14,986 bases of DNA from a virus (Duplodnaviria; Heunggongvirae; Uroviricota; Caudoviricetes). The notes beneath the pieces were generated by a model, which did no database searches, was not told where the DNA came from, and saw nothing but the letters and a program-made list of their open reading frames with translations. The stretch lies in IMG/VR virus record IMGVR_UViG_2534681835_000019. One strand, written 5' to 3'. Shown piece after piece: positions 10,356 to 13,325 of this stretch. A program made the translations under genes and the position numbers. The number at the start of each line of letters is the position of its first letter. The stretch's first letter is position 1.

Positions 10356-10783
10356 AGGTGATTCTCCAGACGAAGACCCAGAACACCGGCAATCTCTTCC
10401 AGCACCTTGCGCTCTTCCGGCTCAATTTCGCCGTCTGCCTCCGCAATGGCCACCGCCACATCCAGCACATCTTCCGCTTCACGCGTATCGTGTTTCACAT
10501 CCTCGATCTCACGTAACGCGGCACGACGACCAATTTTAAAATTGGTATCCAGCTGACCGATAATAGTTGCGCTAATCGCATTAATTTCCGAGGTAAACGC
10601 AGACAACGCAGGCTGATTACGTAAGACCTGTTCGATCTTCGCTTTCTCGGATGCCTCGCATTCACCATCTGCATAGGCCACCAGGTATGCAGCGTTAATC
10701 ACCGCCTGTGCCAGATCGCGTTTCTCAAACTTTTTAATTTCCGCTGCCGCTCTGCGGGTTTTCTTTTTGAAGATTCCAAACAT
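10352..10783 (-). CDS. TerB-like (tellurite-resistance TerB domain) protein
   Basis: 143 aa, ATG start; the helical, acidic composition with repeated A..ADG..E..E motifs (AYLVAYADGECEASEKAKIEQVL ... VAIAEADGEIEPEERKVLEEIA) resembles my recollection of the TerB fold. The IS66 element begins 2 bp upstream of the ATG. Confidence 0.65.
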   Translation of the reverse strand: MFGIFKKKTRRAAAEIKKFEKRDLAQAVINAAYLVAYADGECEASEKAKIEQVLRNQPALSAFTSEINAISATIIGQLDTNFKIGRRAALREIEDVKHDTREAEDVLDVAVAIAEADGEIEPEERKVLEEIAGVLGLRLENHL

Positions 10784-10785
10784 CG
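10778..10785. repeat. Left copy of the 8-bp target site duplication (AAACATCG) flanking the IS66-family element
   Basis: Identical 8-mer at 13318..13325, immediately outside the opposite IS end. Confidence 0.85.
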
Positions 10786-10870
10786 GTAAGCGTAAACTGA
10801 CCGCCGTATGTAGCCATCAGACGAGAATTGGTAACTTAGACGCCCATCTGATATAGACGGACATCTAAGT

Positions 10871-11296
10871 ATGGAATTACAGGACTGGCGAAAAGAACCT
10901 CGTAAAAACTATTCGAATGAATTCAAACTTCGTATGGTGGAACTGGCATCACAACCTGGAGCTTGTGTTGCACAGATTGCACGTGAAAATGGCGTCAATG
11001 ATAATGTTATTTTCAAATGGCTCAGGCTCTGGCAGAACGAAGGGCGTGTTTCGCGGCGTCTTCCGGTAACGACCTCTTCTGACACTGGCGTTGAATTATT
11101 ACCTGTAGAAATAACGCCGGATGAGCAGAAAGAACCTGTGGCGGCCATTGCGCCGTCTTTATCCACTTCCACTCAGACCAGAGTCAGTGCCAGTTCCTGC
11201 AAGGTGGAATTCCGTCACGGTAACATGACGCTGGAAAATCCATCGCCAGAGCTGCTCACGGTGTTGATCCGTGAACTGACCGGGAGGGGAAGATGA
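10871..11296 (+). CDS. tnpA: IS66-family accessory protein Orf1 (TnpA, HTH)
   Basis: 141 aa; NYSNEFKLRMVELASQPGACVAQIARENGVNDNVIFKWLRLWQ is the typical IS66 Orf1 helix-turn-helix region. Confidence 0.85.
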   Translation: MELQDWRKEPRKNYSNEFKLRMVELASQPGACVAQIARENGVNDNVIFKWLRLWQNEGRVSRRLPVTTSSDTGVELLPVEITPDEQKEPVAAIAPSLSTSTQTRVSASSCKVEFRHGNMTLENPSPELLTVLIRELTGRGR

Positions 11297-11643
11297 TCTC
11301 ACTCCCATCAGGTACCCGTATCTGGCTCGTTGCCGGCGTTACCGATATGCGTAAATCCTTCAACGGACTGGGAGAACAGGTACAACATGTGCTGAATGAT
11401 AATCCCTTCTCCGGTCACCTGTTTATCTTCCGTGGCCGACGGGGTGACACCGTCAAAATTCTTTGGGCTGATGCTGATGGTCTGTGCCTGTTCACCAAAC
11501 GCCTGGAGGAAGGCCAGTTTATCTGGCCTGCGGTACGTGACGGCAAGGTATCCATTACCCGCTCGCAACTGGCAATGCTCCTCGATAAGCTGGACTGGCG
11601 TCAGCCAAAAACATCCAGCCGTAACTCACTGACAATGTTGTAA
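11293..11643 (+). CDS. tnpB: IS66-family Orf2 (TnpB)
   Basis: 116 aa; ATGA overlap with orf1; MISLPSGTRIWLVAGVTDMRKSFNGLGEQV...ILWADADGLCLFTKRLEEGQFIWP is the typical IS66 Orf2. Confidence 0.85.
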   Translation: MISLPSGTRIWLVAGVTDMRKSFNGLGEQVQHVLNDNPFSGHLFIFRGRRGDTVKILWADADGLCLFTKRLEEGQFIWPAVRDGKVSITRSQLAMLLDKLDWRQPKTSSRNSLTML

Positions 11644-11673
11644 AAAACTCCTGACCGCATTATAAAAACGGTC

Positions 11674-13287
11674 ATGAGTCAGAAATACCTCATTCGCATC
11701 GCAGAGCTGGAAAGGTTGCTCTCTGAGCAGGCTGAAGCCCTCCGTCAGAAAGACCAGCAACTGAGTCTGGTTGAAGAGACGGAAGCCTTCCTGCGCTCTG
11801 CACTGACACGTGCCGAAGAAAAGATCGAAGAAGATGAACGGGAAATAGAACATCTGCGGGCTCAGATAGAAAAACTGCGCCGGATGCTGTTCGGTACCCG
11901 TTCTGAAAAACTGCGTCGTGAAGTTGAACTGGCTGAGGCTCTGCTGAAACAACGTGAACAGGACAGCGATCGTTACAGTGGGCGGGAAGACGATCCTCAG
12001 GTTCCCCGCCAGTTGCGACAGTCGCGCCATCGTCGTCCGTTACCGGCACACCTTCCCCGTGAAATACACCGCCTGGAGCCAGAAGAAAGCTGTTGCCCGG
12101 AGTGTGGCGGTGAGCTGGATTATCTGGGAGAAGTCAGCGCTGAACAGCTGGAACTGGTGAGCAGTGCCCTGAAAGTGATCCGCACAGAACGGGTAAAAAA
12201 AGCCTGTACAAAATGTGACTGTATTGTTGAAGCACCGGCGCCGTCCCGCCCGATAGAGCGTGGTATCGCGGGCCCCGGATTACTTGCCCGCGTGTTAACG
12301 GGAAAATACTGCGAACATCTGCCACTGTATCGTCAGAGTGAAATCTTTGCCCGCCAGGGTGTCGAACTGAGCCGGGCCTTACTCTCCAACTGGGTTGACG
12401 CGTGCTGCCAGTTAATGACACCGGTGAATGATGCCCTGTACCGTTATGTGATGAATACCCGCAAGCTTCACACTGACGACACACCGGTAAAGGTACTGGC
12501 ACCGGGCCTGAAAAAGACGAAAACAGGGCGCATCTGGACGTATGTCCGGGATGATCGCAATGCGGGTTCGTCATCTCCTCCGGCGGTCTGGTTCGCGTAC
12601 TCATCGAACCGGCAGGGGAAACACCCGGAGCAACACCTCCGCCCCTTCCGGGGTATCCTGCAGGCGGATGCGTTCACAGGTTATGACAGGCTGTTCAGTG
12701 CAGAACGTGAAGGTAGTGCGCTGACAGAAGTTGCGTGCTGGGCTCATGCCCGGAGAAAAATCCACGATGTATACATCAGCAGCAAAAGTGCGACGGCAGA
12801 AGAAGCCCTGAAGCGAATCAGTGAACTGTACGCCATCGAGGATGAAATACGGGGATTACCAGAATCAGAGCGTCTTGCAGCCAGGCAGCAGCGAAGCAAA
12901 GCGTTACTGACGTCGCTGCATGAATGGATGGTGGAGAAGAATGGCACGCTGTCGAAAAAATCCAGACTGGGCGAAGCGTTCAGCTATGTACTGAATCAGT
13001 GGGACGCCCTCTGTTATTACAGTGATGACGGTCTGGCGGAGGTGGACAATAACACAGCGGAAAGAGCGCTTCGTGCAGTCTGTCTCGGAAAGAAAAATTA
13101 CGTGTTCTTCGGTAGCGATCACGGCGGCGAGCGTGGAGCACTGCTGTACGGGCTGATCGGCACCTGCCGTCTGAACGGTATCGATCCGGAAGCGTATCTG
13201 CGCCATATTCTGAGCGTACTGCCGGAATGGCCCTCCAACCGTGTTGACGAACTCCTGCCATGGAACGTAGTACTCACCAATAAATAA
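11674..13287 (+). CDS. tnpC: IS66-family transposase (Orf3/TnpC) with N-terminal leucine zipper and zinc-finger motif
   Basis: 537 aa; coiled-coil N-terminus, CPECGGELDYLGE...CTKCDCIV cysteine cluster, and C-terminal DDE-type region (..NNTAERALRAV..GKKNYVFFGSD..). Confidence 0.9.
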   Translation: MSQKYLIRIAELERLLSEQAEALRQKDQQLSLVEETEAFLRSALTRAEEKIEEDEREIEHLRAQIEKLRRMLFGTRSEKLRREVELAEALLKQREQDSDRYSGREDDPQVPRQLRQSRHRRPLPAHLPREIHRLEPEESCCPECGGELDYLGEVSAEQLELVSSALKVIRTERVKKACTKCDCIVEAPAPSRPIERGIAGPGLLARVLTGKYCEHLPLYRQSEIFARQGVELSRALLSNWVDACCQLMTPVNDALYRYVMNTRKLHTDDTPVKVLAPGLKKTKTGRIWTYVRDDRNAGSSSPPAVWFAYSSNRQGKHPEQHLRPFRGILQADAFTGYDRLFSAEREGSALTEVACWAHARRKIHDVYISSKSATAEEALKRISELYAIEDEIRGLPESERLAARQQRSKALLTSLHEWMVEKNGTLSKKSRLGEAFSYVLNQWDALCYYSDDGLAEVDNNTAERALRAVCLGKKNYVFFGSDHGGERGALLYGLIGTCRLNGIDPEAYLRHILSVLPEWPSNRVDELLPWNVVLTNK

Positions 13288-13317
13288 GCGTCAATACGGT
13301 GCTCCGTTGACGCTTAC

Positions 13318-13325
13318 AAACATCG
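13318..13325. repeat. Right copy of the 8-bp target site duplication (AAACATCG)
   Basis: Identical to 10778..10785. Followed on the minus strand by the displaced native SD (AGGAA) of the TerB-like gene. Confidence 0.85.

Follow-up and report, generated by a model that had tools for sequence, protein, structure and literature searches.

Insertion sequences (ISs) that land in 5' untranslated regions or beside start codons inactivate genes, as is known from IS629, IS1 and IS5 in Escherichia coli, and the outward promoters of IS10 (pOUT), ISEcp1 (blaCTX-M) and ISAba1 activate neighbour genes. The locus described here lies in a 14,986-nt stretch of virus DNA (IMG/VR record IMGVR_UViG_2534681835_000019, Caudoviricetes; hereafter the window, with positions counted from its first letter), in which an IS66-family element lies next to the start codon of tciA, a TerB-family gene of a lambdoid prophage. 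As biology, the event is a gene inactivation of the ordinary IS kind, and the genome that carries it is known and annotated. From the sequence comparisons presented below, we consider it likely that the element was inserted at this site only once, that translation of tciA was strongly reduced, and that the gene is now a cryptic pseudogene annotated as intact.

The IS66-family element and its target site

The ends of the element were located by a repeat search and by reading of the sequence, which placed it at 10786-13317 on the plus strand (2532 bp), inside the prophage and with its genes oriented opposite to the phage late genes. The 24-nt terminal inverted repeats given by the repeat search (left, GTAAGCGTAAACTGACCGCCGTAT, 10786-10809; right, 13294-13317) are 83% complementary and both start with GTAAGCG, as do the repeats of about 20-30 bp that bound elements of the IS66 family (ISfinder; Han et al. 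2001). Three consecutive plus-strand genes are found between them: tnpA (10871-11296; HTH_Tnp_1, PF01527, 46 bits), tnpB (11293-11643; IS66 Orf2-like, PF05717, 125 bits) and tnpC (11674-13287), which encodes a DDE transposase of 537 aa (DDE_Tnp_IS66, PF03050, 325 bits) and also matches zf-IS66, LZ_Tnp_IS66 and the IS66 C-terminal element (PF13005, PF13007, PF13817). All three genes scored far over the cut-offs of the IS66-family Pfam models. Over its whole 2532 bp, the element is 98.4% identical to the best plasmid copies of the ISEc23/ISEc47 family, and at least 80% of it is present in 2163 plasmid records, so that near-identical copies are found at unrelated loci, as expected for a mobile element. 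The names given by the Prokaryotic Genome Annotation Pipeline (PGAP) likewise identify it as ISEc23/ISEc47-like.

An exact 8-bp direct repeat, AAACATCG, was found on both sides of the IS. Its left copy (10778-10785) holds the real tciA start codon, which is read on the minus strand (10783-10781; CAT at 10781-10783) and lies 2 bp from the IS end, and its right copy (13318-13325) holds a duplicated ATG (13323-13321, minus strand). Because IS66 elements duplicate 8 bp of their target, the ATG is present twice and the tciA open reading frame (ORF) was left intact. A first-pass annotation, made from the letters of the window alone, had described an IS66 insertion 2 bp from the ATG of a TerB-like gene and an 8-bp duplication that contains this ATG; the Pfam matches and the repeats agree with it on both points.

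The same annotation had proposed a comparison with IS-free alleles, which was carried out here. A query for the empty site was reconstructed from the left flank, one copy of AAACATCG and the right flank, and was found to be contiguous in 781-791 complete E. coli genomes (99.3-100% identity). The O26 allele reads exactly AAAGGAACGTCACGATGTTTGGAATC, and a longer stretch of the O26 site reads CCCAAAGGAACGTCACGATGTTTGGAATCTTC, as predicted. The insertion accordingly shows the pattern looked for in IS66 transposition: 8 bp of the target are duplicated, and in relatives the empty site is contiguous. PGAP gives the gene an identical start and the same protein accession, WP_000466957.1, in IS-free O26 and IS-containing O111 genomes.

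With junction queries of 400 bp (left) and 250 bp (right), the occupied site was detected at 100% identity in independently assembled complete genomes, 44 for the left and 46 for the right junction. The insertion is neither a chance arrangement nor an assembly artefact. All carriers with a recorded serotype are O111 (H8, NM, H- and one labelled H2), and a single ancestral event is therefore likely; the insertion looks like one ancestral transposition that was vertically inherited and is specific to this lineage. An ISEc23/ISEc47-like element would thus have transposed once into a lambdoid prophage of an ancestor of the O111 enterohaemorrhagic E. coli (EHEC) lineage, with AAACATCG as its target. 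The window itself matches the prophage near 2.56 Mb of O111:H- strain 11128, except for an apparent small indel. The two are not base-for-base identical, as gene coordinates imply an offset of 3 nt and the last 200 bases of the window lack an exact counterpart in the part of the genome that was compared.

Identity and start codon of tciA

The interrupted gene (10352-10783, minus strand) encodes an intact protein of 143 aa that is identical to WP_000466957.1 and matches Pfam TerB over residues 26-138 (60.2 bits against a gathering cut-off of 24.4). Its homologues in P1-like phages are 41-51% identical, including those of D6 (50.7%), JL22 (annotated tciA, 42.0%) and Cyrano ('P1 TciA-like', 42.7%). 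Directly downstream lies the small gene tciB (10188-10355, minus strand; DUF3927, 55 aa, 60.4 bits in Pfam), and the names tciA and tciB are used for the same module in the annotation of phage JLK-2012. In a CRISPR interference (CRISPRi) screen, tciA, tciB and tciC of P1 scored as non-essential. A search with PADLOC gave no significant defence match for tciA or tciB, and an assignment to anti-phage defence was dropped for lack of a meaningful match. A role of tciA in tellurite or colicin resistance or in phage inhibition is putative and derives from annotation names.

The annotated ATG is, as judged by conservation, the true start of tciA. The start codon is regarded as secure because both the N-terminus and the Shine-Dalgarno sequence are conserved across genera and there is no other in-frame ATG anywhere in the ORF. 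Even relatives with an overall identity of only 43% share all of the residues M1, F2, G3, K6, K7, E15, K17, K18, R22, D23 and A27, and the N-terminal motif MFG(I/L/F)(F/L)KK, together with the upstream AAAGGAA, is kept in relatives from Klebsiella, Erwinia, Pantoea and Citrobacter. At the nucleotide level, AAAGGAA followed after 6-7 nt by ATGTT is kept in relatives from E. coli, Klebsiella, Citrobacter, Buttiauxella, Pantoea and Erwinia phages. An extension of the reading frame into the IS was ruled out by an in-frame TGA inside the element 36 nt upstream of the ATG, with no start codon between the two.

The insertion would be harmless if it merely lay in the 5' untranslated region of a gene that starts further downstream at a codon with its own ribosome site. 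The one candidate for such a start is the GTG at codon 28, which is the only near-cognate start from which most of the TerB domain would be retained and is preceded by a G-rich stretch (CAGGCGGTG). The GGCGG in this stretch abuts the GTG with essentially no spacer, however, and codon 28 lies just inside the TerB match, so that a protein started there would lack the N-terminus, including the residues between 1 and 27 that are conserved in distant relatives. As the ribosome-binding motif is also conserved together with the ATG across genera, the downstream start was rejected, and we give this explanation hardly any credence. The first-pass annotation had named a downstream in-frame ATG with its own Shine-Dalgarno sequence as a finding that would overturn its reading, and the gene holds no such codon.

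Expression signals at the two junctions

With the annotated ATG as the start of tciA, the two junctions were compared for ribosome-binding sites, which were taken to require at least 4-5 nt complementary to the 3' end of 16S rRNA, located 5-10 nt before the start codon. The native Shine-Dalgarno sequence AAAGGAA, which is conserved in all relatives, is now found 7 nt before the duplicated ATG at the right IS end (13331-13337, minus strand). It includes the AGGAA at 13335-13331 and forms a duplex of -5.6 kcal/mol with the 16S rRNA 3' end at a spacer of 7 nt, and both the native allele and the orphan reading frame at the right junction thus have a ribosome-binding site by this definition. The left junction, in front of the real gene, has none: among 9-mers whose first base lies 20 to 6 nt ahead of the ATG, the best reaches -2.4 kcal/mol, and the sole GGCGG, about 17 nt before the ATG, is too distant. 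Both the displacement of the native AGGAA by 2.5 kb and the missing Shine-Dalgarno sequence of the real ORF had been noted in the first-pass annotation and stand as described.

As also described there, the duplicated ATG opens a reading frame of 10 codons, MFVSVNGAPY (13291-13323, minus strand), which stops at 13293-13291 in the right IS end. The annotation had termed it a decoy. That word implies a function to which nothing points: the frame is a mere by-product of the target duplication, and it cannot couple to tciA because the two are 2.5 kb apart. A further frame of 26 codons was seen at the left junction (10784-10817, minus strand), where an out-of-frame ORF opens at an ATG of the IS end, 34 nt upstream of the tciA start, and crosses that start; it has no Shine-Dalgarno sequence and is probably meaningless. 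Translational coupling from an ORF on the antisense strand of the IS was rejected, as the closest one with a length of 50 aa or more terminates at a distance of 126 nt and the 26-codon ORF lacks a Shine-Dalgarno sequence.

No sigma-70 consensus promoter facing out of the left IS end was found in strict or relaxed consensus scans. The best relaxed match (8/12, 16-nt spacer) lies near 10998, about 215 nt from tciA, and a hybrid promoter is geometrically impossible because only 2 bp separate the IS end from the ATG. The outward IS promoter on which the first-pass annotation had thought the module might depend therefore finds no counterpart in these scans, which are based on consensus alone; transcription from upstream of the element could still reach the genes.

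Taken together, these features would leave tciA preceded by IS-end sequence with no Shine-Dalgarno sequence in the functional window, and initiation at its ATG would be strongly reduced. The native Shine-Dalgarno sequence and the entire leader that carries it would now serve only the 10-codon peptide 2.5 kb away. Messenger RNA for tciA would arise only from upstream transcripts that pass through 2.5 kb of IS in antisense, i.e., from Q-antiterminated late transcription. The gene tciB has kept its own GGAG, 8 nt upstream of a GTG start that overlaps the tciA stop codon (GTGA, 10355-10352); it would depend on that upstream transcription alone and would have lost coupling to tciA. The net outcome would be a cryptic pseudogene that annotation pipelines list as intact. 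The first-pass annotation had called the whole module probably silenced, and of this the loss of tciA translation remains the best reading of the sequence, with the qualification that tciB retains its own ribosome-binding site.

Several observations weigh against such a loss. The tciA ORF is 100% intact in all carriers. E. coli can initiate translation at a low level without a Shine-Dalgarno sequence if the start region is open and A/U-rich, and the first tciA codons (AUGUUUGGAAUCUUCAAAAAGAAAA) are A-rich; the predicted paired probability around the start rises only modestly, from 0.48 in the native allele to 0.59 in the IS allele. A promoter-like site (9/12) is also present on the antisense strand within tnpB (11425-11396, about 610 nt away), and a non-canonical outward promoter may lie beyond the reach of consensus scans. 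These points could be combined into a different account, in which tciA was rewired by the IS, not killed, and is still usefully expressed: either a promoter in the left part of the element or read-through from upstream would supply an mRNA, and translation would begin at the same ATG in a Shine-Dalgarno-free, S1-dependent manner. The intact frame in all 44-46 carriers, the A-rich downstream box with its modest gain in structure, the weak promoter-like sites at 11425-11396 and around 10998, and a scan that found no intrinsic terminator on the IS antisense strand would all suit such expression. The intactness of the ORF is uninformative, however: all listed carrier genomes match the junction queries at 100% identity, and decay is not yet to be expected because the compared junction regions carry no substitutions. 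There is moreover no Shine-Dalgarno sequence within 20 nt of the ATG and no outward promoter scoring at least 9/12 within 200 nt of the IS end, and the insertion has taken away a leader kept by all relatives, which suggests that native control of the gene matters. We therefore regard useful expression of a rewired tciA as unlikely and favour strongly reduced translation.

A second close tciA locus is present in another prophage of O111 (strain 95NR1, locus L003:2676-3104). Its A-run following codon 6 is one A too long, there is a stop at codon 45, and PGAP marks it as a pseudogene; the identical defective allele is shared by genomes of O26, O103 and O111. The DUF6645/esterase gene beside it has an internal stop too. 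When a 276-nt probe covering the 5' end of tciA and the leader was compared with 95NR1, one of the three matches corresponded to this pseudogene and the other two to either half of the split locus, and no third close copy was detected at megablast sensitivity. O111 thus appears, by these comparisons, to be without a normally expressed close tciA. Because the other close copy is a frameshift-plus-nonsense pseudogene, loss of tciA is evidently tolerated, if the sequences are read in this way.

The displaced leader, a candidate structured RNA

The loss caused by the insertion had been described in the first-pass annotation as one of the Shine-Dalgarno sequence. This is correct as far as it goes and incomplete, as a conserved leader of about 110 nt (13326-13437, minus strand), a candidate structured RNA, was separated from tciA as well. 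On its 5' side the leader module is bounded by a conserved intrinsic terminator, a hairpin with a T-run located directly after the prophage tRNA genes (13461-13480, minus strand), and the interval from terminator to tciA measures about 130 nt. Conservation begins exactly at the terminator hairpin, even where the upstream genes differ. Few leader positions differ between Klebsiella phage 5 and E. coli, whereas their TciA proteins share only 43% identity, and the leader is better conserved than the protein it precedes. Folding of a 168-nt segment that begins just upstream of the terminator hairpin and includes the start codon (13318-13485, minus strand) gave z = -3.35.

Leader sequences were sampled from protein-anchored loci in species genomes and by a pattern scan of viral contigs, which returned many chance matches and was filtered by context and with a covariance model. 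This model was built on three nested helices only and found 56 leader instances, 41 of them distinct. The elements of the leader, all on the minus strand, are helix x, in which CCUUU pairs with AAAGG of the Shine-Dalgarno sequence (13418-13414 with 13337-13333), helix b (13410-13403 with 13349-13342; GGGUGAGC with GCUCACCC) and hairpin c (13393-13389 with 13385-13381). They also include a short hairpin d and helix a (13426-13419 with 13378-13371; CCACAGAG with CUCUGUGG), which lies outside the covariance model and crosses both x and b to form a pseudoknot.

Across the alignment, 93.7% of cells in these elements were paired, as compared with 35-52% when the partners were slid. Helix x was paired in 99% of cells and is closed by an 8-bp GC-rich helix. 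Changes on both sides were found at 15 pairs, as compared with 4.2 in shuffles (0/500), a count to be read with the caveats that the aligned leaders are phylogenetically related and that seven of the 15 fall in helix b, where each comes from a single row, probably that of locus L180, placed one position out of register. Helix a has compensatory changes at four of its eight pairs, one of which is AU in 28 sequences but GC in eight, and its variants include CCGUAGAG/CUCUACGG, CCGCAGA/UCUGCGG, CCUGCAGA/UCUGCAGG and CCACAA/UUGUGG. The sense strand folded better than the antisense strand in 38 of the 41 sequences and G-U pairs were frequent, which argues for an RNA on the mRNA strand. Directly next to the Shine-Dalgarno sequence, the leader thus combines a conserved mRNA-strand structure with compensatory changes. 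An alternative nested fold in which the Shine-Dalgarno sequence is free was nearly isoenergetic (-43.6 versus -40.4 kcal/mol, with helix a uncounted). A purely nested minimum free energy fold was not adopted as the leader structure, as it showed weaker covariation than the pseudoknotted model, and was kept as a possible alternative conformer.

The leader was found in lambdoid prophages of Escherichia, Klebsiella, Citrobacter, Buttiauxella and Pantoea and in Erwinia jumbo phages (further loci include L006, L007, L091, L092, L096, L097, L103, L117 and L172, among others), and in several phages the same leader precedes an unrelated protein of 281 aa with a signal peptide, i.e., a secreted one. 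Divergent second copies of the motif, scoring 31-37 bits, occur elsewhere in the same phage contigs (L207:157-259, minus strand; L135:3713-3815, plus strand; L162:6973-7089, plus strand); they keep the outer helix that sequesters the Shine-Dalgarno sequence and differ in the interior. In Actinobacillus phage vB_Apl-pPE4 (L008), for which a Pasteurellaceae host is listed, the leader region is almost identical to that of E. coli prophage PPyecE_EH1910, and the host assignment of this phage may be wrong.

No Rfam family matched the leader (13326-13460, both strands) at E ≤ 1, which ruled out a known RNA family; the only matches of the Rfam search were to the tRNAs and to an STnc100-family small RNA (sRNA) at 10011-10183. 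When the exact leader sequence was searched for in the literature, all matches were to unrelated primers for human and mouse. In a 2026 preprint on the Pas sRNAs of prophages, PasD/STnc100 and PasA/PasC are assigned to other sites of this region, TerB is mentioned only as a neighbour and the leader is not described. The modelled pairing suggests that the leader is likely a regulatory RNA that sequesters the Shine-Dalgarno sequence. More tentatively, we propose that it could represent an undescribed class of phage cis-regulatory RNA, pseudoknotted and always located after an intrinsic terminator, that gates the translation of late accessory genes; the evidence leaves this broader proposal possible and somewhat short of even.

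Transcription and prophage neighbourhood

According to the annotation of the O111 and O26 loci, the minus-strand order of the region is Q-like gene, AraC-like gene, tRNAs, terminator, leader, tciA-tciB, STnc100, nanS-p, lysis genes, terminase and portal. The Q-like gene (DUF1133, minus strand, by annotation) lies just beyond the window and is separated by an annotated small ORF from the gene for an AraC-family helix-turn-helix regulator of 237 aa (13773-14486, minus strand), which presumably may belong with the prophage-encoded AraC-like regulators of O157. The best promoter-like site of the region is located just upstream of this gene (14549-14522, 10/12). The three tRNA genes upstream of the leader (13493-13744, minus strand) are Arg-tct, Arg-tcg and one with a CAU anticodon. 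The last of these (13669-13744, minus strand) was called Met (anticodon CAT) by ARAGORN and tRNA-Ile by PGAP, and fits an ileZ-like tRNA with its anticodon modified to read AUA.

Strict and relaxed scans found no sigma-70 consensus promoter in the native tciA leader, and a promoter of its own was dropped as a candidate. Because the leader has no consensus promoter and begins with a terminator, native tciA transcription most likely came from upstream, from a candidate tRNA promoter (13783-13755) or a Q-dependent late promoter, as judged from sequence. In O111, transcripts from upstream may still cross the IS in antisense.

Downstream of tciB, the STnc100-family sRNA gene (10011-10183, minus strand; Rfam, 104.7 bits) lies between tciB and the sialate esterase gene nanS-p (7936-9873, minus strand). 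The slot between the tRNAs and nanS-p that holds tciA-tciB is the one occupied by stx in Shiga-toxin (Stx) phages. According to the 2026 preprint, STnc100 is related to PasD, and PasA/PasC are located between esterase and holin, a slot that corresponds to about 7800-7935 of the window. In strain 11128, PGAP annotates a PerC-family regulator (4789-5103 of the compared stretch, L001) that corresponds to window positions 4377-4691 (minus strand; offset about 412-415 nt) and lies between the lysis and terminase genes of the same prophage. A frameshifted hypothetical gene is annotated in that genome between holin and lysozyme, at 6909-7425 of L001 and about 6495-7014 of the window, which suggests that the lysis cassette of the prophage is already decaying.

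This arrangement raises the question of whether the chief effect of the IS is on the prophage and not on tciA. The element could act as a polar block between Q and its late promoter on one side and the lysis and structural genes on the other, helping to immobilise a decaying prophage, and the loss of tciA would then be incidental. The genes for NanS-p, holin, lysozyme, Rz, terminase and portal are indeed all on the minus strand downstream of the IS, with the Q-like gene and the tRNAs upstream; a frameshifted gene is already present between holin and lysozyme, and the insertion is fixed in the lineage. With ordinary polymerase, however, the antisense RNA, which is not translated, could plausibly be terminated by Rho, and with the Q-modified form it could not. 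The Q-modified RNA polymerase of lambdoid phages reads through terminators, and in this case none of the intrinsic type was found on the IS antisense strand. A primarily polar effect is doubtful on this evidence, and we retain the reading in which the insertion acts mainly on tciA.

Comparison with known systems

The case illustrates cleanly how a gene can be counted as intact by annotation though its translation signals are gone, and it is fixed in its lineage; pangenome or gene-presence studies of EHEC treat such genes as present. Its useful points are that the ORF is not flagged as a pseudogene and that a structured leader not described before was removed by the insertion. O111 appears to have lost its two close tciA copies in different ways, a hint that this lineage can do without the module or pays a cost for it. 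The leader is of interest as a conserved and structured RNA without an Rfam family in the late-region slot that controls Shiga-toxin expression; if our reading of it is true, the O111 insertion is a natural 'leader deletion' allele.

The locus resembles other IS inactivations near gene starts in that an intact ORF was cut from its signals, the element is flanked by a duplication and the event is clonal and lineage-specific. It differs from the usual case in that the duplication includes the start codon, which leaves an ATG at both junctions and a formally complete ORF, and in that PGAP assigns the accession of functional alleles without a pseudogene flag. With IS10, ISEcp1 and ISAba1 it shares the geometry of an IS end that abuts a gene start and reads outward. 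Unlike in these elements, no outward -35/-10 was found at its left end, and 2 bp are too few to accommodate a hybrid promoter; nor would the lost Shine-Dalgarno sequence be replaced by a promoter alone.

In the tci module of P1-like phages as in the present one, a TerB-domain TciA (about 140 aa) precedes a small hydrophobic TciB. Here the module is located in a lambdoid late region, in the slot equivalent to that of stx, and no tciC was seen. The flanks of tciA-tciB are those of the stx locus, with its order of Q, late promoter, tRNAs, stx, nanS-p and lysis genes; the cargo here is tciA-tciB with its own long structured leader, and no toxin. Part of the query was matched by 124 records of Stx2a-converting phages; to judge from the sequence of phage 933W, these matches presumably lie on a terminator-like sequence after the last tRNA, which would then be shared with Stx2 phages. 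Like riboswitch platforms and RNA thermometers, the leader is predicted to pair its Shine-Dalgarno sequence, in this case with CCUUU, and to have a nearly isoenergetic alternative that frees it. It is set apart from these by a covarying pseudoknot helix, the lack of an Rfam match and an occurrence in phage late regions only.

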